From a virus (lineage: Duplodnaviria > Caudoviricetes), in IMG/VR virus record IMGVR_UViG_3300043775_000604, positions 1-61,529 of that record: DNA of 61,529 nucleotides; one strand, given 5' to 3'. The notes under the pieces were generated by a model, which did no database searches, was not told the origin of the DNA, and saw only the letters and a program-made list of their open reading frames with translations. Position 1 is the stretch's first letter. Each line of letters begins with the position of its first letter. Shown piece after piece: positions 8,648 to 49,982 of this stretch. A program made the translations under genes and the position numbers.

Positions 8648-8876
8648 AGCAGTGCTAGAGTTAATCAAAGTAGCCGAAGAAGCTATCCTTGAAAATGGAG
8701 AAGACGATTTAAGTGCTGATAAATTAAAGAACGCTGCAGCTACAAAGAAGCTTGCCATTTTCGATGCATTTGAAATATTAGGTCGTATTCAAGACGAAGA
8801 ACGAATGATGGATGAAGCAGAGAATACCACTGAAACAAAAGTTTTCAAAGGTTTTGCAGAAGGGAGGTCTAAATAA
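8601..8876 (+). CDS. Putative terminase small subunit
   Basis: 91 aa helical protein immediately upstream of and coupled to terL. Confidence 0.5.
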   Translation: MDIKETKRNIIAAGHKAVLELIKVAEEAILENGEDDLSADKLKNAAATKKLAIFDAFEILGRIQDEERMMDEAENTTETKVFKGFAEGRSK

Positions 8877-11098
8877 TGTACGAACAAACTTTATATAAAG
8901 AGATCAACGATCATATTAGACCAAACATAATAAAGCAAAAGAATAGACACAATAAATGGGAGTATGGTTATAACAAAGAATTTGATGTTGTTGTTATAAG
9001 CCGCACTGGTAAAATCGGAGAGATATACGAAATACAGAATCTTAAGATTGCATTACCATTAATTGAAAGCTCTTATAAAAGATCGAATAAACAAGAAGAT
9101 CAATATTGGGAACAGTTAAATATACCAAAGGAGATCTCGAAAATAAAAAATGTTTTTGATTGGAACAAATATCCGGATGCTTTTAAGGAACGCTGGTATG
9201 ACTACATCGATCAAGAATTTAAACACAGAGAAGAAGGATTTTCATTTTATAATAATGGTAAACCTACTTATATAACAGGTACACATTATATGTACTTGCA
9301 ATGGAGCAAGATAGACGTTGGGGCTCCCGATTTCAGGGAATCTAATAGATTGTTCTTCATATTTTGGGAAGCATGTAAAGCTGATAATAGATGTTATGGT
9401 ATGTCTTATTTAAAGAATAGACGTTCTGGATTTTCATTTATGTCTTCAGCTGAGCTAGTTAATCAAGCAACTATATCAAGTGATTCTAGATATGGTATAT
9501 TATCAAAGTCTGGGGCAGATGCTAAAAAGATGTTTACAGATAAGGTTGTGCCTATATCAATAAATTATCCATTCTTTTTCAAACCTATCCAGGACGGTAT
9601 GGATAGACCTAAAACAGAATTAGCTTATAGAATACCTGCATCAAAACTTACGCGTAAGAAACTTGATACAAATGAAAAGCTAGAAGAGCTCGACGGTTTA
9701 GATACTACTATTGACTGGAAGAATACCGGTGATAACTCTTATGATGGTGAAAAACTAAAACTATTAGTACACGACGAGAGTGGTAAATGGGAAAGACCAG
9801 ACAATATATTAAATAACTGGAGGGTTACAAAAACCTGTTTGCGTTTAGGGGCTAGGATCATTGGTAAATGTATGATGGGTTCTACTTCGAACGCTTTAGA
9901 TAAAGGAGGAGAAAACTTTAAAAAACTTTATTATGATTCAGACGTTACGAAAAGAAACCGCAATGGACAGACTGCTTCAGGATTATATAGTTTGTTCATA
10001 CCTATGGAATGGTCGTACGAGGGATTCATTGATACTTATGGGTTACCTGTATTCGATACTCCAAAAAAACCAGTAAAAGGAGTTGATGGTAGGCTTATTG
10101 AAATGGGGGTAATAGAGCATTGGCAGAATGAAGTTGAAGGTTTAAAAAACAACTCAGATGCTTTAAATGAATATTATAGACAGTTCCCACGTACAGAGCA
10201 ACATGCTTTTAGAGATGAAGCTAAACAATCATTATTCAATCTTACTAAGATATACGAACAGATAGATTATAACGATGATCTAAGAAATACAAACGTTATC
10301 ACACGCGGTAGTTTTCAATGGGAGAACGGTATACAAGATTCAAAAGTAATGTTTTATCCAAATAAAGACGGTAGATTTTTAATTAGCTGGATTCCCGATA
10401 AATACTTACAAAACCGCGTAATAATAAAAGATGGGATTAAATACCCAGGAAATGAACACTGTGGAGCATTTGGCTGCGATAGTTATGATATATCAGGAAC
10501 AGTGGATTCTAGAGGTTCTAACGGGGCTTTACATGGCTTAACTAAGTTTTCAATGGAAAACATACCTCCTAATCATTTCTTTTTAGAATATGTAGCTAGA
10601 CCGCAAACTGCTGAGATATTCTTTGAAGAAGTTCTAATGGCTTGTGTCTTTTACGGTATGCCAATATTAGCAGAAAATAATAAAGCTAGATTACTATATT
10701 ATTTTAAGAGAAGAGGGTATAGAGGATTTTCCATGAATAGACCTGATAAAGTTTGGAATAAATTATCACCAACAGAGAAAGAGATTGGTGGTATACCTAA
10801 CTCAGGGCAGGATATTATACAAGCTCATGCAGCAGCCATTGAAACCTATATAGAGAACCACGTTGGTATACAAGGAGATAATCACGGTGATATGTACTTT
10901 CAAAGAACATTAAATGATTGGGCAAGATTTAATATAAACGATAGAACGAAGCATGATGCTTCTATTAGTTCTGGTTTGGCTATTATGGCTTGCAATAGAC
11001 ACATGTATTCTCCTGTTTATGAAACAGCTAAACGACAAGTTCCGTTGAATTTCAAGAAATATAATAATAGTGGAAATACTTCAAAAATAATACAATAA
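8876..11098 (+). CDS. terL: Terminase large subunit
   Basis: LKNRRSGFS Walker A variant, LLVHDESGKW Walker B, FGCDSYD nuclease Asp, C-terminal HDASISSGLA. Confidence 0.92.
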   Translation: MYEQTLYKEINDHIRPNIIKQKNRHNKWEYGYNKEFDVVVISRTGKIGEIYEIQNLKIALPLIESSYKRSNKQEDQYWEQLNIPKEISKIKNVFDWNKYPDAFKERWYDYIDQEFKHREEGFSFYNNGKPTYITGTHYMYLQWSKIDVGAPDFRESNRLFFIFWEACKADNRCYGMSYLKNRRSGFSFMSSAELVNQATISSDSRYGILSKSGADAKKMFTDKVVPISINYPFFFKPIQDGMDRPKTELAYRIPASKLTRKKLDTNEKLEELDGLDTTIDWKNTGDNSYDGEKLKLLVHDESGKWERPDNILNNWRVTKTCLRLGARIIGKCMMGSTSNALDKGGENFKKLYYDSDVTKRNRNGQTASGLYSLFIPMEWSYEGFIDTYGLPVFDTPKKPVKGVDGRLIEMGVIEHWQNEVEGLKNNSDALNEYYRQFPRTEQHAFRDEAKQSLFNLTKIYEQIDYNDDLRNTNVITRGSFQWENGIQDSKVMFYPNKDGRFLISWIPDKYLQNRVIIKDGIKYPGNEHCGAFGCDSYDISGTVDSRGSNGALHGLTKFSMENIPPNHFFLEYVARPQTAEIFFEEVLMACVFYGMPILAENNKARLLYYFKRRGYRGFSMNRPDKVWNKLSPTEKEIGGIPNSGQDIIQAHAAAIETYIENHVGIQGDNHGDMYFQRTLNDWARFNINDRTKHDASISSGLAIMACNRHMYSPVYETAKRQVPLNFKKYNNSGNTSKIIQ

Positions 11099-13501
11099 AT
11101 GATTTATACTAATAGCAATAGTTCTTTTCCAAGTCAGGTAGTACCTGATCAAGTGAAACAAACATTAGAATACGGAGCACTTGTTGGAAGAGCTATAGAA
11201 AACGAATGGTTTAGAGGAGACCGTGTTGGAGGAGCTGGTAACGATAGATTCGGTTCTAACTGGCAAAACTTTCATAGGTTAAGACTTTATGCAAGGGGAG
11301 AACAGCCTATACAAAAATACAAAGATGAATTATCTATAAACGGTGATTTATCTTATTTGAATTTAGATTGGAAACCTATTCCTATTTTACCTAAATTCGT
11401 TGATATTGTTGTTAATGGTATATCTAACAAAAGCTATAGTATAAAAGCTTATGCACAAGATCCAGCGTCTACAAAAGCTAAAACAGATTATGCTGCTAGT
11501 ATAATAAGAGACATGATGGCTCGTGATTTCTTAGATGAAATACAAACTAAATTAGGTGTAAACTTATATAATACAAACGATCCTAAAAACTTACCAGAGT
11601 CTACTGAAGAATTAGAAATGAGACTTCAGCTTGACTATAAACCATCTATTGAGATTGCAGAGGAAGAAGTTATAAACCAAGTATTAGCTACTAATAAATA
11701 TGATTTAATCGCAAAGAGACTTAATTATGATCTAACTGTTATTGGTATTGCATGTGCTAAGACCTCGTGGAATCCAGCTAATGGTATAGTTATTGATTAC
11801 GTTGATCCAGCTAACTTGGTATACTCTTATACAGAGGATCCAAACTTTGAGGATGTATATTATGTTGGTGAAGTAAAAGCGATAAGCCTAGAAGAATTAA
11901 AAAAGCAATTTCCTTATTTGTCTAATGATGAATTAAAAGAGATTGAAAAATATCCTGGAGATATGAATTACATTCGTAACTATCCAGGGCAAAGTATGGA
12001 CAATACAACTGTGCAGGTTTTATATTTCGAATACAAGACATATTCAAATCAAGTATTTAAAATAAAACAAACAGAACAAGGGATGGAAAAAGCTATTGAG
12101 AAAGATGATAGCTTTGATCCGCCAGAAAGTGATAACTTCAAAAGAGTATCAAGAAGCATCGAAGTTTTATACACAGGAGCTAAAATCCTTGGGTATGAGA
12201 AAATGCTAGAATGGAAGTTAGCTGAGAATATGACGCGCCCATTTGCTGATACGACTAAAGTGCAGATGAATTATAATATCTGTGCGCCTAGAATGTATAA
12301 AGGTAGAATTGAATCATTAGTAAGTAGAACTACTACTTTTGCTGATATGATCCAGTTAACACACCTTAAGTTACAACAGGTATTAGCTAGAATGGTTCCA
12401 GATGGAGTATTCGTTGATGTCGATGGTTTAGCTGAAGTTGATTTAGGTAATGGAACAAATTACAATCCAGCAGAAGCGCTTAATATGTATTTCCAAACGG
12501 GTAGTATCGTTGGTAGATCCATGTCACAAGATGGTGGAGTTAACCAAGGTAAAGTGCCAATTCAAGAATTACAAACATCAAACGGTAACGCTAAGATACA
12601 AGCGCTTATAGGTACATACCAGTACTACTTACAAATGATCCGTGATGTTACCGGATTGAATGAAGCTAGAGATGGAAGTACGCCTGATAAAGATGCTTTA
12701 GTTGGATTACAGAAAATGGCAGCTGCTAATTCTAATACAGCTACACGTCACATAAAAGATGCTAGTTTATATTTAACATTGAGAACATGTGAAAATATAT
12801 CATTGAGAATATCTGATTCACTTAATTTCCCATTGACAAGACAATCTTTAATAGAGAGTATATCTTTGTTCAATGTGGAAACATTAAAAGAGATTGAGAA
12901 TTTGAACATCCACGATTTTGGCATCTTCTTAGAGCTAGAACCAGAAGAAGAGGAAAGAGCAGCCTTCGAAAGAAATGTGCAAATAGCTTTACAAGCGGGT
13001 AATATAGATCTTGAAGATGTTATTGACTTGAATCAGATAAGTAACATTGGATTAGCTAATCAAGCTTTAAAATTCAAGAAGAAGAAAAAGCAAGAAAGAG
13101 ATCAAGCTAATCAACAAGAAATGATTAGAGCACAAAGCGAAGCGCAAGCACAAGCATCAGAAGCAGCTGCAATGGCGGAGGTACAGAAAAGAGAAGCTTT
13201 AGCGCAAACAGAAATACAAGTATTACAATCTAAGTCTCAATTTGAGATGCAAAGAATGATGCAAGAAATGTCTATAAAGAAACAACTTATGGCAGAACAA
13301 TTCAAATATGATTTGGAGCTTGCAAAACTTCAAGTAGATATTGCTAATAAAAAATTACAACAAGCAGAAGATCGTAAAGATCAAAGAACTAAGATACAAG
13401 CAACACAGCAATCAGAATTAATTGAGCAAAGAAAGAATAATACGATGCCAAAAGATTTTGAGAACTCAGGAGTAGATACACTCGACTTAGGTCTTATGTA
13501 A
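11099..13501 (+). CDS. Portal protein
   Basis: 800 aa right after terL; PILPKFVDIVVNG, RDVTGLNEARDG; C-terminal Q/E-rich coiled coil. Confidence 0.85.
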   Translation: MIYTNSNSSFPSQVVPDQVKQTLEYGALVGRAIENEWFRGDRVGGAGNDRFGSNWQNFHRLRLYARGEQPIQKYKDELSINGDLSYLNLDWKPIPILPKFVDIVVNGISNKSYSIKAYAQDPASTKAKTDYAASIIRDMMARDFLDEIQTKLGVNLYNTNDPKNLPESTEELEMRLQLDYKPSIEIAEEEVINQVLATNKYDLIAKRLNYDLTVIGIACAKTSWNPANGIVIDYVDPANLVYSYTEDPNFEDVYYVGEVKAISLEELKKQFPYLSNDELKEIEKYPGDMNYIRNYPGQSMDNTTVQVLYFEYKTYSNQVFKIKQTEQGMEKAIEKDDSFDPPESDNFKRVSRSIEVLYTGAKILGYEKMLEWKLAENMTRPFADTTKVQMNYNICAPRMYKGRIESLVSRTTTFADMIQLTHLKLQQVLARMVPDGVFVDVDGLAEVDLGNGTNYNPAEALNMYFQTGSIVGRSMSQDGGVNQGKVPIQELQTSNGNAKIQALIGTYQYYLQMIRDVTGLNEARDGSTPDKDALVGLQKMAAANSNTATRHIKDASLYLTLRTCENISLRISDSLNFPLTRQSLIESISLFNVETLKEIENLNIHDFGIFLELEPEEEERAAFERNVQIALQAGNIDLEDVIDLNQISNIGLANQALKFKKKKKQERDQANQQEMIRAQSEAQAQASEAAAMAEVQKREALAQTEIQVLQSKSQFEMQRMMQEMSIKKQLMAEQFKYDLELAKLQVDIANKKLQQAEDRKDQRTKIQATQQSELIEQRKNNTMPKDFENSGVDTLDLGLM

Positions 13502-13531: not shown

Positions 13532-14722
13532 ATGTCAGAACAAGTAAAACAAGAAGGAAGTTTTAAAATGCAAAAACCAAAACCCGCTGCTAGAAAGTTA
13601 AATAAACCTGCAGTGGTTACAAAAGTTGATTTACAAACTAAACCAGAAGATAATGCCATTCAAGAGCAAAACACAAATGCAGGCGTGCTGGGCAATGAAG
13701 TCACCAAAGTGGAATTGCCAAAAGTGGATGAAAGAAACACCGAACCCGCAATCATTACCCAAAGCATTGAAGCGCCAGCCGAAGAAGTAACTCATATTAA
13801 TGTAATCCAAGAGATTTCAGAAGAAGAGGTTATTGCTAGTTCAAAAGAATTAGAACAAGAAGCAGCTGCAGCTGTTAGTGTGGCAGAAAGCACTGGTAAG
13901 CAATTACCAGAGAACATTGAGAAGTTGATTTCATTTATGGAAGATACTGGAGGAACAGTTGAGGACTATGTTAGATTGAATGCTGATTACTCAAATGTTA
14001 ACAATGAATTATTATTAAAAGAATACTATAAAAAAACAAGACCTCATCTTAACGAGGAAGAAATTGATTTCCTAATGGATGATCGATTTGCATACGATGA
14101 AGACGAGGACGATGAACGCGATATCCGTAAAAAGAAATTAGCGTTTAAAGAAGAAGTTGCAAAAGCTAAGGGGTTTCTTGAAGATCTTAAAGAAAAATAC
14201 TACGAGGAAGTAAAGTTACGACCAAGTGTAAATAAGGATCAACAAAAAGCACTTGACTTTTTCAATAGATATCAAAAAGAGCAAGAAGTTGTGGAAGATC
14301 AACATTTAAAGTTTAAGAACGACACAAAGAGTTTTTTCTCACAAGATTTCAAAGGTTTTGATTTCAAATTAGGTGAAAAGAATTTTAGATATGGAGTTCA
14401 GAACACAGATGTTGTAGCAGATAAGCAATCGAATATTACTAACTTAGTCAAGAAGTTCTTGAATGATAAAGGAGAAGTAACAGATTTGAAAGGTTATCAC
14501 AAAGCAATGTATGCTGCAGAAAACGTAGATACTTTGGCTAATCATTTTTATGAACAAGGCAAAGCAGATGCTATTAAAGAAATTACTGCAAAATCAAATA
14601 ATATTACGACCGCTCCAAGGCAAACTGCAAGTGGTGAAATATTTGTAAATGGTTTTAAAGTTAAAGCAATTAATGGTGTGGACTCTACAAAATTAAAAAT
14701 AAAGAGTAAATTTAACAACTAA
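13532..14722 (+). CDS. Putative capsid scaffolding protein
   Basis: Acidic, coiled-coil, between portal and capsid genes. Confidence 0.6.
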   Translation: MSEQVKQEGSFKMQKPKPAARKLNKPAVVTKVDLQTKPEDNAIQEQNTNAGVLGNEVTKVELPKVDERNTEPAIITQSIEAPAEEVTHINVIQEISEEEVIASSKELEQEAAAAVSVAESTGKQLPENIEKLISFMEDTGGTVEDYVRLNADYSNVNNELLLKEYYKKTRPHLNEEEIDFLMDDRFAYDEDEDDERDIRKKKLAFKEEVAKAKGFLEDLKEKYYEEVKLRPSVNKDQQKALDFFNRYQKEQEVVEDQHLKFKNDTKSFFSQDFKGFDFKLGEKNFRYGVQNTDVVADKQSNITNLVKKFLNDKGEVTDLKGYHKAMYAAENVDTLANHFYEQGKADAIKEITAKSNNITTAPRQTASGEIFVNGFKVKAINGVDSTKLKIKSKFNN

Positions 14723-24086: not shown

Positions 24087-24560
24087 ATGGAAAATAAAAT
24101 TCAATTAAATCAAGAGCATCGGTTAATAAATACCGAGTTCATCAATAAGGTAGAACAGTTAGAATCCTCTATGCTGGCAATGGATAGCCCATTAATAGCA
24201 AAGGGGAATTCTGATATGTTTCCATTAAAGCATTCATTTTCTGAAGGAGTTTACATTAGAGAAATGTTTATGCAAAAAGACGGATTTGTAATTGGTAAAC
24301 TTTATAAAATATCACATACATGGTTTTTATTAAAAGGAGAGATTACAGTGGCTACTGACGAAGGAGTGAGTAATTATATTGCTCCTTGTTATGTACATGC
24401 TCCTGAAGGAACAAAAAGGGTTATACACGCTATAGAAGATACTATATTTGTAAATGTATATCCAAACCCTGACAATATAACAGACATTGAAACATTGGAG
24501 AACATGTTAACATGTAAATCCTACGAAGAATATAAAGAATATAAACTTTTAAACGAATAG
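24087..24560 (+). CDS. Cupin-like protein
   Basis: HSFSEGVYIREMFM...SHTWFLLKG...APCY...GTKRVIHAIEDT. Confidence 0.65.
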   Translation: MENKIQLNQEHRLINTEFINKVEQLESSMLAMDSPLIAKGNSDMFPLKHSFSEGVYIREMFMQKDGFVIGKLYKISHTWFLLKGEITVATDEGVSNYIAPCYVHAPEGTKRVIHAIEDTIFVNVYPNPDNITDIETLENMLTCKSYEEYKEYKLLNE

Positions 24561-24563
24561 AGT

Positions 24564-25475
24564 ATGAGTATGGTAGTAGCAGGAGCTATTGGAGGTGGAG
24601 CTTCCATAGTTACTGGAATTATTGGCATGGGAGGCGCTAAAAAAGCTAGACGTCGAGCAGAAGCGGAGGCTAGAGCGAGAGCAGCTGAACTTGCTAAATT
24701 AGAAAGATCTAGGCAAGCGATTATTAATCCTTATGCTGGTGTTAAAGACGTTAGTTCTATGGCATCAAATCCATTTGCTAGTTTAGGAGTAGCTACTCAA
24801 GCAGCGGAATTCCAAGCTGAGCAAGCGGATATGTCGTTAGCTAATACATTAGACACATTAAAACAAACTGGAGCAAGTGCTGGTGGAGCAACCGCTTTAG
24901 CGCAGGCTGCACTACAAAGTAAGAAAGAGATTTCTGCAAACATAGAACAACAAGAGGCCGCTAATGAAAAACTTAGAGCTCAAGGAGAACAAGAATTACA
25001 ATCTATAAAAATGGCTGAAGCAGCTAGGGTTCAACAAGCGGAAGCTGCTGGTAAGCAATTTATGTTTGAAGCACGTGAATCTCGTGAACAAGGAAAAATT
25101 GATAGAGTTGCCGGCCAACTTGCAGGAGCACAAGCGCAGGCAGCGCAAGCAAGAGCAGATCAAATGGGGGCTTTAACCGGTATGATTGGAGGTATAACTT
25201 CATCTATTGGATCAATGGCTTCAAGTGGTGCATTCAGCAAAGGAGGCACAACCGCTACTTCAGACAGAAGATTAAAAACAGATATAAAGAAAATAGGAGT
25301 TTCCCCAAGCGGTTTAAATATATACTCTTTTAAATATAAAGATGATAAATTTGGTGAAGGAGTTTGGCAAGGAGTTATGGCTGATGAAGTTCCTGCTTTT
25401 GCTGTATCAAATAATAATGATGGTTATAGTCAAGTTGATTACTCTTTAATCGACGTAGAATTCAAACAAATATAA
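24564..25475 (+). CDS. DNA ejection/pilot-like protein with C-terminal peptidase S74 intramolecular chaperone domain
   Basis: Gly/Ala hydrophobic ends around an Ala/Gln coiled coil; SDRRLKTDI...GVMADEV...VDYS. Confidence 0.75.
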   Translation: MSMVVAGAIGGGASIVTGIIGMGGAKKARRRAEAEARARAAELAKLERSRQAIINPYAGVKDVSSMASNPFASLGVATQAAEFQAEQADMSLANTLDTLKQTGASAGGATALAQAALQSKKEISANIEQQEAANEKLRAQGEQELQSIKMAEAARVQQAEAAGKQFMFEARESREQGKIDRVAGQLAGAQAQAAQARADQMGALTGMIGGITSSIGSMASSGAFSKGGTTATSDRRLKTDIKKIGVSPSGLNIYSFKYKDDKFGEGVWQGVMADEVPAFAVSNNNDGYSQVDYSLIDVEFKQI

Positions 25476-26910: not shown

Positions 26911-29900
26911 ATGTTTGAATACATCGATGCCTCTGGGCAAATATATACAGAAGATCAAATCAACAAAATGGCAGCCGAGCAAAAAACCTCGGCTAATGCC
27001 ATTATAAAAGACAAAGGATTAAAAAGAAAATCTTCAATGGTTTCAGCTTCTGCAAAGCCAGCTAAAAAAACATATCCTTGGAGTGATCAAACAAAAGAAA
27101 AAAAATCAGAAGGCGATTTTCTTGGCACATTCAAAAAAGCTCAGAAGAATAAAAAAGCAAATATAAAGAAGAGCACTGAGGAAGTATCAGCATTTGTAGG
27201 TAAACAAAATGATTATTCGTTTTACCAAAAAGATCCTATACAAGACATTTTAAATCCAACTAGCGAATTTGAAAAAGCTATTGCAAATATTCCAATTAAA
27301 AAGGAATTTGAGATACTAGAAGAGAAGGAAGCAGAAGTAATGAATTATATAAAGAGCAAGCCTATTGACTATGCCTCTATTGATAAATTATATGCAGATG
27401 AGGTTAACGATTCTCAAACAATAGATTACATTAGAGAAGGTGCAAAAGGGTTCCTTAATGATGTTATATTAAGCCCAGTATCTATGGTAGGGCAAGTTTT
27501 AGGCGCTGATATAGATATGACTATATCTCCATACAAGCCATTAGAGACACAAAAAAAGAAAGCTATAGATATATTATCAAAGAAAGCTAAAAAAGGCCAG
27601 AAAATAAACGCTGCAGATGTTGATGCGTTAGCTAAGGAGATATTTTATAAAGAGCAAGTATTAATACAAGAGGGCAAAGCTGCGGAAGAATATTGGGATG
27701 ATCAACCTTTATACATCGGAGAAGTAGCTGCACAGAAAGAAAAATTAAAAATAAGAGCAGTACAAGATGTATTGGTATCTTCTGATTTAGCTAGACAACA
27801 AACTATATTAGCTAAAACATATAACAGCCAATTATCTTCATTTGAAAAGTATGCAAATCTTTTTAAAGACAAATATACTAAAGGGGAAGTTACAGAAGAA
27901 GAAATAGCTACTTACGAAACAAGAAGAGAAGATGCTAGAAAGGCTATGGATAACCTTAAAGGTATTGCAGATAATTATCCTGCTTATGTTGATAAAATAA
28001 AAACAGACGAAGAGAAATTAGAGTATTTCAAATATAATTATGATGATGTAACCGCTAATCTATCCAAGTTTATTGGTACTGGTATAAATATATTAGGTGG
28101 AGCTACAAAGTTAATTGGATCTACAATTGAATATGCTGAAGGAGACGAAAAAGGATTAGGTGGATTTTTAGGAGAAGTTGGTACTGCTAATATAGAAATG
28201 GGTAATAAAATAAAAGAAGATGCTAAGAATATATCATTTGATAATGTTAATTCTTTTGGTGACTTTGGTAAATATTTTGCTGGACTAGTTTCAGAACAAT
28301 TACCTATTTATGCAGCAATGTATTTTGGTGGGAATTATGGATTGGCCGCTGTATCAATGGGAGCTGGTGGGCAGAAGATCCAAGAAATGGAAGATGAGAT
28401 TGGTTCTGATTATGATCTTGGTACAAAGCTTTTAGCTGGGTATGGGTTTGCTCTTTCAGAGTTTATACCTGAAAAATTAGGTACACTAAGGATGTTTGAG
28501 AACATGAAGAAAACAATGTCCGCGGTCAGCAAACAGCAAAGACAGCTATTCAAAGATAGCTTTATAAAGTCTAGTCTAAAAACAGCTGGTACTATTGGTT
28601 TTGAAAGTCAAATAGAAGGAGCAACTGAAGTTGTTACCGAAGGATTAAACATGCTTTTAGACGAGCATTTATTAGGCCAGCCAGTTTCTCCAACAGATAG
28701 AGTCAAAAGATTTAAAGAGGCTTATGCTGGAGGCGCATTTATGGGAGGAGGAGCTCAATTTGCAGGTGGTGTATCAACTTTAGTGGCTAAAGAATTAAAG
28801 AACTACGCCACAGATAAAGAGTTAGCTGCTAGTAAAGCAATAATGGAACGTATTGACTTTTTGCAAAATGAATTACAAACTAACCCTAGATTATCTGGAA
28901 AAGAAAGTGAAGAAATAATAACTGAAATAAAAAAGCTCAGTAATGAAGCTGTTAAAGTTATTGAAAATTCAGAAGACAGAGTGTATGACATGTCAAAGGA
29001 AGACATGGTTGATGTTCTACTTATAAACAAACAACAACAAGATCTTAGAGACGCTTACGTTGAATTATCTCAGTCAAACTTTTCGCCAGAGATTAAGAAA
29101 GAAAAAGTAGCAGAATTAAAAAAGCAATTTGGCGAGCTAGAGAATAAAAGAGAATACTTATTAACCGGTAAGTATGCTGAAATAAATAAAATAATAGGTA
29201 ACAGAACTATTATTAATAGCGGAGCCGATAATATAAGAAAAATTGTAGCTTCATTAGGTGAAGAAAATATTGAGAATAGAATAGGTGGTCAAGGATCAAT
29301 CGCTGTATTTGAAGATATCGACTCACTTAAAAAAGCTTACAAAGAATGGTTAACAACCGAAAATAATACTATTAAAAAGAAGATTGCTGATGGCGAACTT
29401 CCTGCTAATACAAAAATAAAATCAGAAGATGAAATAACTAATGATGTAAATGAAGCTGCAAAAAACGATGGATTTGCATTGCCAAATGGTCAATCTGTTA
29501 TTAATCTTAGTGTAGCTTCAAGAACTGGAGCTATTAACGTTGCGCAGCATGAGTTTTTGCATAAAGTATTAGCTAAAGCCCTCAGTAACCCAGTAGAAAG
29601 AAAAAAAATTGTTAATGGGTTTTTAGCTACATTGACGAATAAAGAAAGAGCTGCTGTTCAAAAACGTATTGATGAAAACTATTTAAACCCTGAAACAGGT
29701 AAGATAGACGACGAGAACCTTGAAGAATATTTTACAGCGTTTATTGATGCTATTGCTTACGGAGAAATAGGTAATAGAAATCAAGTTAAAGATGTATTAA
29801 GAAGAGCTGCTCGTCCAGTATTAAAAGTATTACAGAAATTAGGATTCTCTAACGCTAAATTTAGCGAAGGAAGAGATTTCTATGACTTCTTAAAAGAATA

Positions 29901-32900
29901 TCAATCTAACGCTAGTAAGGGCAGAATAAGTAACAGAGCTAAAGCTTTATTAGATGGAGCATCTGTAGCTAGACCTATTAGATACTCAAAGTCAATTGAA
30001 GAACGCATGGACGATTTGGATGAGCAACTTAATGATGGCGAAATTGACTACGACACTTACGAGAAGAAAATGGTTGCTCTGGAAAAAGAGGAAGCTGAAA
30101 TGAAACGTAAAGAATACGAAGAAAAGAAAGCAGAAACGGGTAAGGAGCCAGAAGTTAAGAAAGCAGACAAAAAAGCTACAAAGCAAAAAGAGCCGAAATC
30201 AAAAGAGGAAATAGAGATAAGTGAAGTTGCCGCTAAAGCTAAAGCTAAGCTTGATGCTATTGGTAATGATCCAAGAGGTTACAATCCAAATAATCCAACC
30301 ATATATGATGAGTTAGCTAAAATGGTTAAAGTAAAATCGCGAAACTGGAGAACAAACAAAGGAACTGTTATAGATTTTACAAATAAAGATAAGGGCGGAT
30401 TAGACGGTTTTAGTTTAGAGGAAATGGTGAGTTATGTTAGAACATCGATGATACCATATATTGCTAAATTTGATCCCTCTAAAAATAATAGTTTATACGG
30501 ATATATAAATGCTCAGTATATAAACCGTATGCGCGGCGCATTAAAAAGCGGGGAAGTTGCTGATGTGGTATTTACTGAGGATGTTACTGAAATGACAAAA
30601 CTATCTGCGGAGGATGTTGAGCCAACAAAACCATCTTTACCGGAAAGAAAACGTTTTCAAAATATATTAGAATCTGGTGTATTCAGCCCTGATGTTATTG
30701 AAAATATACAAGCAAAAATATTACCAGTTGTAAGAACTTTAAGAGCTAATATCAACGAGAAAACATCTTTGAATAGAACTGTAGCTCCAATTATTAGTGA
30801 GATACGTGATGAGATGGGTAAGCAAGCTGACATTGATATTAAAAAAGCAATGGGTGGAAAAGAAAATCAAGAATTACAGAATTGGTTAATCACTAATAAA
30901 AAGACTATTCTTGAGAACATGACAACAACATGGCTTATGGGTAAAGACATGGGCGATAAAGTTGCTGGTGGTATGCCGTTTGCCATACAAAAAAGAGTAG
31001 ATGGCCGATGGCTTAATTACCCTGCTTGGGTTGGTAAAAAGATAGATAGAGAATCTGTAGACGTTGACTTAGCTGGTAGAACAGCTGGTCACGAGATGGC
31101 AAGAAGATTACCTGAGGTGAATAGAAATGTTGAAACAATGGAATATTTATCTTCAATTATAGATTTAGAAACGGGTAATCCAATTAGAGGTAGGAAAGAA
31201 TCTTTAGCTAAAGCATTAGCAGAGGAGGTATCATTTGATATTATATCTGATGACTTATCTTCTAACGGCCCTATTGCACAAGCATTAAATAGAAACCAAC
31301 AATTAAAAGGAGCTGTAGTTGAAGACATAATAGTTGAAGAGTTTAATAGATTAGCAGAAAGAGGAAATGTTAAATTTTCTATATCTAATACAAACATCGA
31401 CTTAAATGCAGCTGCTAGATTTATGATAGACTCTAAAGGCAATATGGATGTCATAAATGCAGCAATAAACAATAAGTCTAAAAATTACAATATAAATGAA
31501 TTCCAAAAACTATACAAGTATATAACTAAGTATGGTGTAACAGATGAGGACTTAAAGTATCTAATGGATAAATACAGTGATGTATCTAACGAAGTTGCTG
31601 GTCCTCTTATGAATGACAAAGAAGTTAAATTCTCTAAATCATTGGAGAATAATTTGAATTCATATAATAAATCCGATAAGGGTATTACATTAGTCTCTGA
31701 TTATATTGCTGAAAACAATATTAAGAGAATAGATGCGGAAACCGCTTTCGATGTCTTAAACGATCTTAATAAGTCAATTGAAGATTGGTGGAGTGTCGTT
31801 GAAAATAAAACAATAGAAGGCATGATGAGTTCTGTTGATTATGCGTTTGATGTAATCGAAGATCGTGAGAACGAAGGCGGACCTATGATGGCCGCTGTAA
31901 ACAATGCTCTTAATTTAGAGACAATTAAGTTTGCTGAGAAGCAATTAAACGATTGGATTAGTAACGACACTAAGTGGAAAGCAAGACCTAAATTTAGTAA
32001 GTCATTATCCACTCTTTCACAATTTAATGATATAAGTAAATCTGAAAAAGAATTTATTGATATTTCTGAGAAGTTTGTTAAAGATGTGATGAATAAAAGC
32101 GGGTTGAATAGAAAAGCTATACAGCTTGAGACATTAACTATAAAAGAGGATAATGAGCTATATAATTTTGATCAGGAATATCAAGAGCTATATGATAAAG
32201 ATTATGACGGCACAATAACAGAAGCTGAGAGGGCAAGGATGGAGGAAATATATAAAAGTAATGTATTAGCTAAACAGGTTAATAAGATACTTGAAATATA
32301 TACTAAAGCAAAGATTAACAGCAATAATAATGATATAGTAAATGCTGTTGAAAGTTCAATGCCTAAAAAAGCTTTAACTACTACAAAATTTAGTAGATCA
32401 GGAGGGCCTCTTTCTTCTGTTGAAGAAACCTCTAAAGCTGTAACAGGAGTCATTGACAATATAGACCTGCGTAGCTTTCCTTTTGAAGATCAATCTGCAG
32501 TACAAGCTTTTATCGATGTAGTTAATAACATAAATAAACTAGGTTATAACGTAAGTGATATAAAAACATTTAAAGACTATTTTGACTTTGTAAACCAGAA
32601 CGAGGTAATTAAAGAATATCTAGAAGCTGTAGGCGAAATCGAAGGATTAAATGATATATACAATACTCATGTAGAGAACGTATCAATATATGAAATGGAA
32701 CCGGTTGTATATGGAATAGATACAGATGCTTCAAGAAATAATACCTACATATTAGCCTCTGATGTAATAGACCCTAATTCAGGTGAAATTATTGCTAAAG
32801 CAGGAAGTAAAATAAATGAGGGTATCATTGAAGAAATAAACACTAAAGGTAAAGGATCTATAAAAGAAGTTGAAGTATTTATAGGTAAAATGGCTATGGA

Positions 32901-35448
32901 TAGTAAAATTCCTAACAAGGATTTATTAAAACTAAAAGACAGCATTGCAGATCTTTCTTTAGCGTCAAAAAGAAAAGTAGCTGAAGCAATTTCAGAGAAG
33001 TATCATAAAGCAAAGAGTAAAGGAGATACGGAAGTTGAAAACGCTAGAACATTGACAAAAAAAGAAAGGACAGAGGCTATAGCTAAACTTACGGACTCTC
33101 AGAAAGAGGACTTATTCGTAATAGATGTAGTAGAGAATGTTGTTCCTAAAGATAATGGATCTAGACCTGGTAAATCTTTAGATTATGAATTTAATGACAT
33201 GCTTGAACGTAATAAAGGTGTACCATCATACGAAAAAATATCTGATATTGTTGCGAAAAGGAAAGGGGCAAAAGTAAATAGATTTTCTTTCTATATTCCT
33301 CCTTCAGCTGATGATTTTATTGGACTGACTTCATATATGTTTGCAGGCAAAGGCAAGCAGGGAGAATTAGACCAACAGTTTTTTACGCGTTACTTAATTA
33401 TACCTTATGTAAAAGGAATAAATACACTAGATACAGTAAGACAATCTATAAAGAAATCATACAAAGAACTATTATCAAGTTTTCCTGAAATAAAATCTAA
33501 GTTAGAGAAACTTATTCCTGATAAGTCATTTACATACGATCAAGCTATTAGGGTTTATTTATGGGCAAAGAATGATATAGATATACCGGGTTTAGATAGA
33601 AAAGATAAAAATAAGCTAGTATACATAGTAAAAAATGATCCAGACTTAATTGCATTTGCTGAAGCTTTATCTATTGCTGGTAGGCAAGACGGCGGTTGGT
33701 GGAAACCGTCTACTACATGGGATAGTGAAACTATTATATCGGATCTACACAACATTACAGAAGGCGATGGTAGAAAAATGTGGCTAGAGGAGTTTATAGA
33801 AAACGCTAACACAATATTTTCTAAAGAAAACCTAAACAAAATTCAATCTATATATGGTACCAGTGTAAGAGAGGCTTTGGAAGACGCATTATATAGAATG
33901 AAAAACGGGAAAAATAGACCTGAAGGCACGGATGCGTTAACCAACAGATGGATGAATTGGATAAACGGATCCACTGCTGCGATCATGTTTTTCAATTTAC
34001 GTTCCGCTATTTTACAAACGATATCTACTACAAACTATTTGAATTGGAGTGATAACAATCCTTTAATGGCAGCAAAAGCGTTTGCAAATCAAAAACAATA
34101 TTGGGCGGATTTCGCTATGATTATTAATTCTGATAAATTAAAAGAAAGAAGATCTGGATTGAAAGCTGATGTTACGCAATCTGAAATTGCAAATGCGGCT
34201 AATAATGCAAAAGATAAAGCAAGAGGTGTTCTATCTTATCTACAGAAAATAGGGTTTACGCCTACACAAGCAGCTGATAGTTTTGCGATTGCATTAGGAG
34301 GATCTACTTTCTATAGAAATAGAGTTAATACCTATTTGAATAAAGCAGACGAAGACGGGAACTTGATATATACAGAAAAAGAAGCAGAAGATTTAGCTTG
34401 GCTTGATTTTTCAAGAGCAACTGACCAGTCAATGCAATCTGCTGATCCATTGTATGTTTCAAAACAACAAACAACTTCATTAGGGCGCCTTGTACTAGCT
34501 TTTGCTAATACTCCTATGCAATATAATAGATTAATTAAAAAAGCTTCATTAGACTTAGTTAATAGGCGTGGCGATTGGAAAACAAATATATCAAAAATAG
34601 TATATTATGGAGCCTTACAAAATATTATATTTTCAGCATTACAAGCAGCTTTATTCTTACCATTTGATGACGAGGAAGAAGATATTGCCAATATGACTAA
34701 AGAGCAGAAAAAAGAATATGAAAAGTTAAAAAAGAAAGAAGACGATAAAGCTATTAATATTTTAAATGGGATGGCTGATACATTGTTAAGAGGATCTGGT
34801 ATTACAGGTGCATTAATATCTACTATTAAAAATGTTTACATGGAATATAATAAGCAAGAACAAAGGGAGATGTTTGCGGACCATGCTTATACTATATTAG
34901 CTGCTGCGGGTATATCTCCACCTATAAGTTCCAAGGCTAGAAAATTATACGGAGCGCATCGTACAAAAAAATTCGATAAAGATGTAATAGCTGAACGCGG
35001 ATGGGAAATAACAAAAGACGGTAAGCTTAATCTTAGTCCTAATTATCAAATAGTCGGTAATATAGCTGTAGCAACTACAAATATTCCTCTAGATAGGGTT
35101 GTTGAAAAAGTAAATAATGTATCTGAAGCATTAGATTCTCGTAATACAAAACTACAAAGAACAGCATTAATGCTTGGATGGAAAGCGTGGGAATTGAATG
35201 TTAAAAACGAAGAAAGCGAAGCAATCAAAGCAAAAGCTAAAGAAGTAAGAAATAAAGAAGGGGTAGAAAAAGCTATAGAAACTAGAGAAAGAAAGACAGA
35301 TTCAATAAAGCAAATGATAAAAGAAATGCCTAGTGCTGAAAGAAGTGCTTACCTTAGAAAGCAAAAGCTAGAAAGAAGAGAGAAGACTATTGAAAAAAGA
35401 AAGAAAGCTATAGCTAAAAAGAATAAAAGAAGAATGGGCGGTGATTAA
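26911..35448 (+). CDS. Giant (2845 aa) internal virion polyvalent protein with zincin protease, sigma-region-2-like and RpoB/RpoC-insert-like modules
   Basis: Last gene of the ejection cluster; HEFLH at aa 880 plus downstream EE; repeated [KR][FY]S[KRI]S; see findings. Confidence 0.75.
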   Translation: MFEYIDASGQIYTEDQINKMAAEQKTSANAIIKDKGLKRKSSMVSASAKPAKKTYPWSDQTKEKKSEGDFLGTFKKAQKNKKANIKKSTEEVSAFVGKQNDYSFYQKDPIQDILNPTSEFEKAIANIPIKKEFEILEEKEAEVMNYIKSKPIDYASIDKLYADEVNDSQTIDYIREGAKGFLNDVILSPVSMVGQVLGADIDMTISPYKPLETQKKKAIDILSKKAKKGQKINAADVDALAKEIFYKEQVLIQEGKAAEEYWDDQPLYIGEVAAQKEKLKIRAVQDVLVSSDLARQQTILAKTYNSQLSSFEKYANLFKDKYTKGEVTEEEIATYETRREDARKAMDNLKGIADNYPAYVDKIKTDEEKLEYFKYNYDDVTANLSKFIGTGINILGGATKLIGSTIEYAEGDEKGLGGFLGEVGTANIEMGNKIKEDAKNISFDNVNSFGDFGKYFAGLVSEQLPIYAAMYFGGNYGLAAVSMGAGGQKIQEMEDEIGSDYDLGTKLLAGYGFALSEFIPEKLGTLRMFENMKKTMSAVSKQQRQLFKDSFIKSSLKTAGTIGFESQIEGATEVVTEGLNMLLDEHLLGQPVSPTDRVKRFKEAYAGGAFMGGGAQFAGGVSTLVAKELKNYATDKELAASKAIMERIDFLQNELQTNPRLSGKESEEIITEIKKLSNEAVKVIENSEDRVYDMSKEDMVDVLLINKQQQDLRDAYVELSQSNFSPEIKKEKVAELKKQFGELENKREYLLTGKYAEINKIIGNRTIINSGADNIRKIVASLGEENIENRIGGQGSIAVFEDIDSLKKAYKEWLTTENNTIKKKIADGELPANTKIKSEDEITNDVNEAAKNDGFALPNGQSVINLSVASRTGAINVAQHEFLHKVLAKALSNPVERKKIVNGFLATLTNKERAAVQKRIDENYLNPETGKIDDENLEEYFTAFIDAIAYGEIGNRNQVKDVLRRAARPVLKVLQKLGFSNAKFSEGRDFYDFLKEYQSNASKGRISNRAKALLDGASVARPIRYSKSIEERMDDLDEQLNDGEIDYDTYEKKMVALEKEEAEMKRKEYEEKKAETGKEPEVKKADKKATKQKEPKSKEEIEISEVAAKAKAKLDAIGNDPRGYNPNNPTIYDELAKMVKVKSRNWRTNKGTVIDFTNKDKGGLDGFSLEEMVSYVRTSMIPYIAKFDPSKNNSLYGYINAQYINRMRGALKSGEVADVVFTEDVTEMTKLSAEDVEPTKPSLPERKRFQNILESGVFSPDVIENIQAKILPVVRTLRANINEKTSLNRTVAPIISEIRDEMGKQADIDIKKAMGGKENQELQNWLITNKKTILENMTTTWLMGKDMGDKVAGGMPFAIQKRVDGRWLNYPAWVGKKIDRESVDVDLAGRTAGHEMARRLPEVNRNVETMEYLSSIIDLETGNPIRGRKESLAKALAEEVSFDIISDDLSSNGPIAQALNRNQQLKGAVVEDIIVEEFNRLAERGNVKFSISNTNIDLNAAARFMIDSKGNMDVINAAINNKSKNYNINEFQKLYKYITKYGVTDEDLKYLMDKYSDVSNEVAGPLMNDKEVKFSKSLENNLNSYNKSDKGITLVSDYIAENNIKRIDAETAFDVLNDLNKSIEDWWSVVENKTIEGMMSSVDYAFDVIEDRENEGGPMMAAVNNALNLETIKFAEKQLNDWISNDTKWKARPKFSKSLSTLSQFNDISKSEKEFIDISEKFVKDVMNKSGLNRKAIQLETLTIKEDNELYNFDQEYQELYDKDYDGTITEAERARMEEIYKSNVLAKQVNKILEIYTKAKINSNNNDIVNAVESSMPKKALTTTKFSRSGGPLSSVEETSKAVTGVIDNIDLRSFPFEDQSAVQAFIDVVNNINKLGYNVSDIKTFKDYFDFVNQNEVIKEYLEAVGEIEGLNDIYNTHVENVSIYEMEPVVYGIDTDASRNNTYILASDVIDPNSGEIIAKAGSKINEGIIEEINTKGKGSIKEVEVFIGKMAMDSKIPNKDLLKLKDSIADLSLASKRKVAEAISEKYHKAKSKGDTEVENARTLTKKERTEAIAKLTDSQKEDLFVIDVVENVVPKDNGSRPGKSLDYEFNDMLERNKGVPSYEKISDIVAKRKGAKVNRFSFYIPPSADDFIGLTSYMFAGKGKQGELDQQFFTRYLIIPYVKGINTLDTVRQSIKKSYKELLSSFPEIKSKLEKLIPDKSFTYDQAIRVYLWAKNDIDIPGLDRKDKNKLVYIVKNDPDLIAFAEALSIAGRQDGGWWKPSTTWDSETIISDLHNITEGDGRKMWLEEFIENANTIFSKENLNKIQSIYGTSVREALEDALYRMKNGKNRPEGTDALTNRWMNWINGSTAAIMFFNLRSAILQTISTTNYLNWSDNNPLMAAKAFANQKQYWADFAMIINSDKLKERRSGLKADVTQSEIANAANNAKDKARGVLSYLQKIGFTPTQAADSFAIALGGSTFYRNRVNTYLNKADEDGNLIYTEKEAEDLAWLDFSRATDQSMQSADPLYVSKQQTTSLGRLVLAFANTPMQYNRLIKKASLDLVNRRGDWKTNISKIVYYGALQNIIFSALQAALFLPFDDEEEDIANMTKEQKKEYEKLKKKEDDKAINILNGMADTLLRGSGITGALISTIKNVYMEYNKQEQREMFADHAYTILAAAGISPPISSKARKLYGAHRTKKFDKDVIAERGWEITKDGKLNLSPNYQIVGNIAVATTNIPLDRVVEKVNNVSEALDSRNTKLQRTALMLGWKAWELNVKNEESEAIKAKAKEVRNKEGVEKAIETRERKTDSIKQMIKEMPSAERSAYLRKQKLERREKTIEKRKKAIAKKNKRRMGGD

Positions 35449-44596: not shown

Positions 44597-45364
44597 TTAT
44601 AGGTAATCAAGGACTTGCGAGGAATCAACGTTCGCAACTAGTTTAGCTATCGCTTGCTTTTTTATCTCAGAAATTCTAACATAAGCACTTGCTCCTTCAA
44701 TACCTAAATAGTCTGCTATTGCATTTGCTGGATGCTTATCGCAGTCTAAACCGTAACTTAATCTCAATACATCGTTTTCTGTTTGTGTTAAATGTTTACT
44801 TAATAAATCTACTAAGTATTTATTCATTAAGTTTATATTGTAAGGCTCAGCTCTATCAGGGATCTGATACAACATATTGTCATCATCATCATCATCACTC
44901 ATTTGTTCATCGATGCTAAGGAATATTGAATTGAAGAACATTGATACCATTGCATGATCCTGACCATTATCCTTCCTAATTTCATTTAGTTTATGTTCTG
45001 GGATCTTAATAGCGCCTCTATTGATATCTATAGCTCTTCTAATCGAGCCTTTTATTCTTTTTGATAGAAACGACTTGATTGTTTTTTCTTGATCAACAGA
45101 CGAGCTTATTGTCTTCCATTCTATTTTATCAACAGCTAATATTAAACCAATTGATCCGTATTGAATAAGGTCTGTAATATCTAGTACACCGCAAGCTTGG
45201 GTTGTAGTTGAAAACTTTTTAGCTATGTTTTCTACTAATGGTAGAAACTTACTTATAAGTTGATCTCTAGAATAAGATTCAAAGTTAACTTCGTTGTTGT
45301 TTTTATTAACACGAGCTATATCTTCTTTGTATCTAATGTAATTTGGTATGTTGTAGCTTTTCAT
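44597..45364 (-). CDS. Phage RNA polymerase sigma-70 family factor
   Basis: Region 2 LPLVENIAKKF...DLIQYGSIGLILAVDK...KRIKGSIRRAI, IKIP, region 4 LTQTENDVLRLSYGL...IADYLG...RISEIKKQAIAKL. Confidence 0.9.
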   Translation of the reverse strand: MKSYNIPNYIRYKEDIARVNKNNNEVNFESYSRDQLISKFLPLVENIAKKFSTTTQACGVLDITDLIQYGSIGLILAVDKIEWKTISSSVDQEKTIKSFLSKRIKGSIRRAIDINRGAIKIPEHKLNEIRKDNGQDHAMVSMFFNSIFLSIDEQMSDDDDDDNMLYQIPDRAEPYNINLMNKYLVDLLSKHLTQTENDVLRLSYGLDCDKHPANAIADYLGIEGASAYVRISEIKKQAIAKLVANVDSSQVLDYL

Positions 45365-49892: not shown

Positions 49893-49909
49893 AGTTTTAA
49901 TTTGTTTAG

Positions 49910-49982
49910 TAGTCAGGACAGGATTCGAACCTGCATCTTCCCGTTGCCTGAACGGGCTCGTTACCATTTACGCCACCTGACT
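49910..49982 (-). tRNA. tRNA-like gene with atypical anticodon loop (TCAGGCA, nominal AGG)
   Basis: Perfect acceptor stem AGTCAGG/CCTGACT, T-arm GCAGG-TTCGAAT-CCTGT, anticodon stem CCCGT/ACGGG; C instead of U at 33. Confidence 0.7.

Follow-up and report, generated by a model that had tools for sequence, protein, structure and literature searches.

The closest described systems to the protein analysed here are the polyvalent proteins of phages, in which zincin-like peptidases were proposed to process the chain (Iyer, Burroughs, Anand, de Souza, Aravind, J Bacteriol 2017). In the available part of that paper they appear as giant multidomain proteins encoded beside the portal–terminase module, organized around an HExxH + Glu peptidase hub and carrying variable enzymatic modules such as ADP-ribosyltransferases (ART), zeta-toxin-like kinases and LPD-type domains. 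One such protein, the 2811-amino-acid (aa) gp47 of phage phi24B, was found by mass spectrometry in podovirus virions, according to the accessible part of a preprint (bioRxiv 10.64898/2026.04.10.717836). Here we analyse IMGVR_UViG_3300043775_000604, a complete virus record of 61,529 bp with direct terminal repeats (the window, by which we mean this whole stretch of DNA), and in particular the giant protein of 2845 aa that it encodes. This protein shares with the polyvalent proteins its size, its position and its peptidase signature, and the variable enzymatic modules are found here in its relatives. A sequence-only reading of the window had taken it for a self-processing polyprotein, in which an HExxH protease is followed by repeated junctions of the form [KR][FY]S[KRI]S. 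We find that this motif is real, selected as a peptide, restricted to the giant protein downstream of the protease, and that it marks exact module edges.

The giant protein was compared with a working set of 191 family proteins, comprising 120 database proteins and 71 open reading frames (ORFs) from IMG/VR loci, and with the giant 'structural protein' of its closest cultured relative, Flavobacterium phage vB_FspP_elemo (Elemovirus; elemo below). Its parts are the following.

26911..35448, + strand: giant ORF, 2845 aa, 320 kDa, 13.9% of the genome, closing the structural + strand block
27358..29190, + strand: N2 (aa 150-760), conserved N-terminal domain with Gly-rich segments, common to the elemo giant 'structural protein'
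29458..29979, + strand: putative zincin-like metalloprotease domain (aa ~850-1023) with invariant HExxH and Glu
29548..29562, + strand: HEFLH motif (aa 880-884)
29725..29727, + strand: Glu939, candidate third zinc ligand, invariant, the second residue of the EE at aa 938-939 (nt 29722)
29980..29994, + strand: junction 1, RYSKS (aa 1024), directly after the protease domain
29986..30240, + strand: K/E-rich, highly charged linker (aa 1026-1110), charged fraction up to 0.65
30238..31371, + strand: D1 (aa 1110-1487), conserved domain with many invariant residues, in 191 of 191 family proteins
31372..31386, + strand: junction 2, KFSIS (aa 1488), at the end of D1, where R-G-N-x-K-x-S is invariant
31378..31626, + strand: module m1, 83 aa, in 36 of 191 family proteins
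31627..31641, + strand: junction 3, KFSKS (aa 1573)
31633..31989, + strand: module m2, 119 aa, in 90 of 191
31990..32004, + strand: junction 4, KFSKS (aa 1694), the site of an extra 305-aa ART-like module in relative P0003
31996..32385, + strand: module m3, 130 aa, in 5 of 191, not in relatives P0005-P0007
32386..32400, + strand: junction 5, KFSRS (aa 1826), made of the KFS of an old junction and the RS of an inserted module
32392..33168, + strand: module m4, 259 aa, in 1 of 191, that is, within the family in this phage alone
33163..33177, + strand: RPGKS (aa 2085), degenerate right edge of the m4 insertion, KFSKS in relatives
33172..35445, + strand: C-terminal conserved domain (C domain; aa 2088-2845), 758 aa, in 191 of 191, 56% mean column identity

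The sequence-only reading had located all of its elements correctly, from HEFLH at 29548 through KFSRS at 32386 and including the weaker matches KFSEG and RPGKS, and its block sizes of 464, 85, 121, 132 and 260 aa also hold. The giant protein contains five copies of [KR][FY]S[KRI]S, compared to a mean of 0.029 in 20,000 shuffles, in which the count never exceeds 2 and thus never reaches 5; for KFSxS the figures are 4 and 0.045. Since the pattern had been defined after inspection, a circumstance that leaves room for chance recurrence of a short string in a long Lys/Ser-rich protein, it was cross-validated with a 6-residue matrix built from the C-domain junction only (65 distinct hexamers). Scanning the 191 family proteins with this matrix gives 458 hits of at least 11 bits, against 41 in shuffled copies. 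Leaving aside the training site itself, 307 hits remain; 304 of them fall in the region bounded by HExxH and the C domain, two are N-terminal and one is C-terminal to it. The density of [FY]Sx[ST] is highest in the same region, at 2.55 per 1000 aa, compared to 0.63 on its N-terminal side and 0.26 on its C-terminal side. The motif can be refined to (I/V/T)-K-[F/Y]-S-K-[S/T], often followed by [L/I]-[E/D]-x-x-[F/L/M]-[N/D], and it is conserved at orthologous junctions across 45–50% sequence divergence, although junction 1 is weakened to x-S-K-[S/A/T] in distant members. Given the shuffles, the matrix scan and the conservation at orthologous junctions, the probability that the recurrence is fortuitous is negligible, and we regard that explanation as already refuted. 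One of the two weaker matches does not survive. KFSEG (aa 983, nt 29857) is not a junction: it belongs to a conserved stretch within the protease-associated domain, at positions where the residues differ between members.

The copies in the window were also said to use different codons, and they do: the first Ser is TCA at aa 1024, TCT at 1488 and 1573, and AGT at 1694 and 1826. Across loci, the first Ser at the C-domain boundary is encoded by AGY in 50 of 51 Ser codons, with variable wobble positions, and at the end of D1 by TCN in 41 and AGY in 7 (n = 48). Because the copies draw on different Ser codon families, it is the peptide that is selected and not a DNA repeat. The opposite view would be that the motif is a recombination signal or scar at the DNA level, left by microhomology or target-site duplication, and has no role as a peptide. 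Scars of this sort do occur in other giant proteins (a 27-nt repeat around a 132-aa module in elemo and QEGQTQ in a protein referred to as P0122, both described below), and the breakpoint between the family members L097 and L099 falls at the motif. Against it stand the mixture of TCN and AGY codons in the window, the direct-repeat families, of which the 20 largest of 59 in the window include none at a motif site, and the orthologous sites, at which the peptide is retained despite variation in wobble positions and in the Ser codon family. We consider a purely DNA-level origin very improbable.

The alignment test that accompanied the sequence-only reading, which looks for whole-module indels at the motifs, was made between the window protein and five relatives that are 94–99% identical to it elsewhere. 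It reveals three indels, of 305, 132 and 259 aa, all with their edges inside the motif. P0003 has an extra 305-aa module that starts with KFSVS and stops just before KFSKS; P0005, P0006 and P0007 lack the 132-aa m3 stretch, exactly from KFSKS to KFSKS; and in all five relatives KFS/KS is continuous with the C domain, the 259-aa m4 being absent. In the DNA, m4 is inserted exactly between the Ser and Lys codons of KFS/KS, and this is why its right edge, RPGKS, is degenerate. The weaker match at aa 2085 (33163) therefore does mark a module edge, as had been suggested, but as the degenerate end of the m4 insertion at a place where relatives read KFSKS. That the motifs bound independent modules, and that the cassette can be extended by insertion of modules at the motif, are both supported by these near-identical relatives, in the latter case by m4 within KFS/KS. 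The wider family behaves similarly. A motif lies no more than 15 aa from the end of a BLAST segment in 31% of cases and from its start in 16%, compared to 4% for random positions, and among 30 insertion events identified from BLAST segments (flanks of at least 60% identity) the motif is present at both edges in 12 and at one or both in 24.

Some of the exchanged modules resemble known effectors. In the relative L025 a motif-bounded 200-aa segment is a complete Zeta_toxin/AAA_33 kinase domain that starts three residues past the motif (E 2.6e-15), and Zeta_toxin/AAA_33 scores above the Pfam cut-off at the same slot in both L025 and L016. The extra module of P0003 has a weak likeness to ART-PolyVal (E 4.9e-5, below the Pfam cut-off). 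A counterpart of m4 with 30% identity lies at aa 1816-2019 of P0122, an unrelated giant protein of 3238 aa from a metagenome that has LPD23 and two HExxH motifs. Through these three modules the family can be grouped with the polyvalent proteins; in the window protein itself the HExxH signature is the only feature of polyvalent-type domains, and m1–m4 match no known family in Pfam. In P0122 the m4-like module is flanked on both sides by QEGQTQ (aa 1808 and 2036), and modules of polyvalent proteins may often be bracketed by short repeats. Another case is seen in the elemoC giant protein (L001:11386-22470), where a 132-aa module lies between the two copies of a perfect 27-nt direct repeat that encodes QEDAVQKQ (aa 1087 and 1219). 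This repeat looks like a recent insertion or duplication scar, unlike the codon-diverse motif of the present family. In elemo itself, R[FQM]Q[AK], with three copies, was considered as an analogous motif; its definition was post hoc and we give it no weight.

The sequence-only reading had identified the protease by HEFLH and a downstream EE. Exactly one HExxH is present per protein in all 121 proteins inspected, and H880, E881, H884 and E939, the last 55 residues past H884, are invariant in alignments of 16, 56 and 56 sequences. In an alignment of 56 sequences with a mean column identity of only 19%, these four are the sole invariant columns of the domain. The protease signature with its downstream Glu is thus upheld, and such invariance indicates selection for catalysis and a gluzincin-type signature, with E939 a candidate for the third zinc ligand. 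The domain is homologous to the HEIFH region of elemo (hhalign probability 95%, E 3.2e-8). Similarity to characterized peptidases is faint: the window protein has no Pfam peptidase match up to E 1, PDB profile searches with profiles A2, A3 and A4 and a search with P0003 return no peptidase or no match at all, and two of 56 members have weak matches, to Pfam DUF3267 (E 0.19) and to the NCBIfam M6 domain (E 0.064). Variants of HExxH and variants of the motif show no pattern of covariation. Since the hidden Markov model (HMM) of alignment A3 misses divergent HExxH-bearing members, the presence of the zincin was scored by HExxH together with hhalign.

Scored in this way, motif and protease go together. 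In 80 viral loci the giant ORFs contain 108 hits of at least 13 bits (4.95 per 10,000 aa), compared to five hits (0.14 per 10,000 aa) in all other ORFs of at least 100 aa, one of which is a piece of a split giant gene; in the window the motif occurs in no other real ORF. HExxH is missing from L099 (2025 aa) and L101 (1841 aa), two complete members of the family that both come from a single Flavobacteriaceae bin, and a zincin is not detected in either by hhalign (probability 0.07% and 0.37%). Each has no motif hit, whereas 184 of 202 HExxH-bearing giant proteins have at least one; Pfam returns nothing on L097, L099 or L101. Over 680 aa the C domain of L099 has 98.97% identity with the one in L097, a family member from this bin that does carry the zincin. 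This identity begins right after the IKFSKS of L097, at a place where L099 and L101 carry unrelated residues. Since the motif is absent before a C domain that is 99% identical, it is not part of the C-domain fold. To judge by these sequences, the motif travels with the protease-bearing half of the protein. The same bin holds four copies of the C domain on three contigs (L094, L097, L099 and L101), and two of the four, both lacking the protease, share one 117-kb contig; it seems that phages occurring together recombine at the C-domain boundary and exchange the N-terminal half as a whole. Natural splits of the gene at the motif were also considered, but the short zincin proteins (47) and D1 proteins (35, of which 13 were inspected) look like contig-end or frameshift fragments and are uninformative.

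The same observations bear on the question of which enzyme might act on the motif. Head proteases of T4-like and phiKZ-like phages cut internal and injected proteins at short motifs, and by this precedent a phage maturation protease, or a host enzyme, could cleave the giant protein in trans. No such protease was found among 20 ORFs of the window scanned with PHROGs, six of them also with Pfam. Head proteases that act in trans usually have several virion proteins as substrates, yet the motif is carried by the giant protein and by no other phage protein. The joint absence of motif and in-cis zincin in L099 and L101 also argues against it. Cleavage in trans is, in our judgement, improbable.

The reading that we favour, while seeing the chances for and against it as evenly balanced, is that the K-F-S-K-S motif would be the recognition and cleavage site of the protein's own zincin. 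The fixed parts of the protein are the N-terminal domain, the zincin-like metalloprotease, D1 and the 758-aa C domain, and the slot between D1 and the C domain gains and loses accessory modules. The zincin would cut the 320-kDa chain at the junctions, either after packaging or after ejection into the host, into about six pieces of 1024, 464, 85, 121, 132 and 1019 aa. In this way D1 and the small modules would be released as separate pieces, apart from the two large ends, with m4 expected to stay joined to the C domain because the right-hand m4 site is degenerate. Thermolysin-type zincins have a general preference for a hydrophobic residue at P1', so the scissile bond is probably located just before or just after the aromatic residue. 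If it is the bond between K/R and F/Y, the pieces would have masses of 114.0, 52.4, 9.7, 13.8, 15.3 and 115.1 kDa. The virion location of the giant protein is inferred from gene order and from the 'structural protein' label of the elemo homologue.

Several observations weigh against self-processing. No internal motif is present in the variable region of 93 of 177 members, 18 of 202 HExxH-bearing proteins have no motif hit at all, about 50 of 207 do not have the strict motif at the C-domain boundary, and in six of the 30 insertion events both edges are free of the motif. Owing to redundancy in the family set, its counts are not independent events, and the co-absence of motif and protease comes from one or two related proteins of one metagenome bin. 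No curated zincin family in Pfam, NCBIfam, PHROGs or PDB (sequence and profile) matches the protease domain. The elemo 'structural protein' label has no proteomic basis in the paper checked. Finally, an HExxH in a giant ejected protein need not mean processing, as the N4 virion RNA polymerase is packaged uncut according to the available part of Iyer et al. (2017), and the second Ser with the helix-like stretch after it also fits a purely structural linker.

That last point leads to an alternative in which the motif is never cut. It would be a short extended linker with a helix N-cap by which modules are joined in series, or a repeated docking element that serves packaging or threading through the tail, and the zincin would act elsewhere, for instance on the peptide stems of peptidoglycan during ejection or on host proteins. 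The residues after the motif (the second S/T, then L/I, E/D, x, x, F/L/M, N/D) resemble the start of a helix, and the nine residues before it are less hydrophobic than average (0.29 compared to 0.39). If insertions were tolerated in linkers only, module edges would also come to lie at the motif. The available part of the phi24B preprint proposes for the metallopeptidase of the 2811-aa polyvalent protein a role on peptidoglycan, and in N4 the HExxH domain is retained though the polymerase is packaged unprocessed, as far as the accessible portion of the source goes. A generic linker, however, would be under no need to retain K, an aromatic residue, S and K over 45–50% divergence and in both Ser codon families, nor is it obvious for a linker to occur only downstream of a protease and to be missing in both protease-less members, even before a 99%-identical C domain. 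On balance we consider an uncut structural joint unlikely, though it is the main alternative.

Returning to self-processing, a broader picture can be put forward tentatively, and with less than even confidence. The family may represent a plug-and-play, self-dismantling delivery vehicle in widespread marine Bacteroidota phages: a 300-kDa protein would be ejected with the DNA, its zincin would cut at K-[F/Y]-S-K-[S/T] and free D1 together with a changing set of small effectors (a kinase, an ADP-ribosyltransferase-like protein and unknown folds), and new effectors would be inserted at the cleavage sites. The family is large. Of 8000 candidates in a word-based search, 2716 score E 0.001 or better, and a profile search with the protease domain gives at least 1483 cluster representatives (50% identity), 519 of them at E 1e-30 or better.

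The remaining parts of the giant protein are conserved and largely without annotation. The first ~20 residues (26911-26985), M-x-E-Y-x-D-x-x-G-x-x-Y-T-E-x-x-I, are alike in many family members and may be a packaging or portal-binding signal. As a whole the giant protein has no match in PHROGs or PDB, and nothing at E 0.1 or better in Pfam, the weakest match listed being Tricorn_C1 at E 0.18. D1 matches nothing in Pfam, NCBIfam or PDB and was not found in cultured phages. The C domain contains one strongly hydrophobic segment (aa 2563-2585) and has no PDB sequence match; neither D1 nor the C domain matches a named family. The idea that D1, by a resemblance to sigma region 2, is a sigma-like factor was rejected. 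Pfam Sigma70_r2 matches only another gene of the window (45113-45259, − strand) and not D1, the D1-bearing profile A2 and the sigma-like gene of the window are unrelated (hhalign probability 0.08%), and NCBIfam sigma70-ECF matches one of 56 members at E 0.0067.

The source is an uncultured marine tailed phage with a genome of ~61 kb, probably a podovirus like its only cultured relatives. The genes identified by PHROGs and Pfam scans upstream of the giant ORF, in a + strand structural block with several other virion protein genes, are these.

8876-11098, + strand: large terminase
11099-13501, + strand: portal
24087-25475, + strand: tail-fibre proteins

The giant ORF, very large and multidomain and placed after the terminase, portal, virion and tail-fibre genes, has the size and gene setting of polyvalent proteins; beyond it, replication and nucleotide-metabolism genes are on the − strand. 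Matches of the giant protein to cultured phages by tblastn (68 records, 66 from Flavobacterium phage elemo and two from Tenacibaculum phage) are confined to aa 150-759. A scan of prokaryote genome bins with the C domain yields 25 loci, all metagenome-assembled, of which 16 are labelled Bacteroidota. Since the cultured relatives grow on Flavobacterium and Tenacibaculum and most of the bin loci are Bacteroidota, the host is probably a marine member of Bacteroidota.

Four further features of the window may be mentioned. A GroEL-like chaperonin of 520 aa is encoded at 2477-4039 (+ strand; phrog_5725, E 8.7e-130), and it is a mere thought that it might help to fold the giant virion protein. Between the portal and a capsid-like gene lies a 396-aa ORF (13532-14722, + strand) with no PHROGs or Pfam match, whose position suggests a scaffolding protein. 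A 255-aa ORF at 44597-45364 (− strand) is the phage sigma-like factor, with a Sigma70_r2 match of 22.8 bits (26.4 with neighbouring matches). A single tRNA-Pro with anticodon AGG is located at 49909-49982 (− strand) by ARAGORN and Rfam.

For the proposal of 2017 that giant polyvalent proteins of phages and plasmids are processed by their own zincins, the family supplies a five-residue candidate site, a catalytic residue (E881) and predicted fragment sizes, and natural controls are at hand in relatives that differ by single modules and in relatives without the protease. Should the cut be real, the motif would allow the mature forms of giant phage proteins to be predicted, thousands of which are uncharacterised; it would account for the exchange of injected effectors without disturbance to their carrier, and protease and site together would be a compact tool for the design of multi-cargo proteins. 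Should it not be, the motif, being conserved, still shows where domains meet in otherwise unannotated proteins.

Among described proteins, the elemo giant protein (3694 aa) is the nearest relative. Like the window protein it ends the structural module and has the N-terminal domain (29% identity over 651 aa, E 5e-53) and the zincin domain; in contrast, it has no D1, no C domain and no K-F-S-K-S junctions, and it contains DUF3293. The gp47 of phi24B is likewise a giant polyvalent protein of a short-tailed phage, with a metallopeptidase domain, and is proposed to be packaged in the capsid and ejected. It differs in carrying LPD5, LPD1, LPD38 and MuF-C and in the assignment of its peptidase to peptidoglycan degradation, and the available part of the preprint reports no processing or junction motif. 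The virion RNA polymerase of N4 (gp50; ~3500 aa), again as far as the available sources go, is comparable as a giant ejected protein with a conserved HExxH subdomain that has been described structurally, and differs in being packaged unprocessed (Iyer et al. 2017) and in being an RNA polymerase, of which the window protein shows no sign. With the polyvalent proteins of Iyer et al. (2017), the difference lies in the junctions. In the accessible text of that paper neither a junction nor a cleavage motif is defined ('linker' and 'boundar' do not occur in it, and 'cleavage site' occurs once, in the reference list), whereas in the present family a specific motif marks junctions and module turnover. 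A defined junction or cleavage motif for polyvalent proteins was not found in our search of the literature, which did not extend to supplementary files and subscription journals. The class and the idea of processing by a zincin are already published, and the junction motif is what was not found in print.

If the broader picture of a self-dismantling delivery vehicle is true, the giant protein would be a phage analogue of the MARTX toxins and of viral polyproteins, and its motif the first defined cleavage code for polyvalent proteins. The MARTX toxins of Vibrio are secreted bacterial toxins in which one huge chain carries exchangeable effector modules, and a protease within the chain cuts the sites between modules after delivery; this protease is a cysteine protease activated by inositol phosphate, and repeat regions serve translocation. 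The two systems share no homology and MARTX toxins are not phage proteins, but their working principle is alike.

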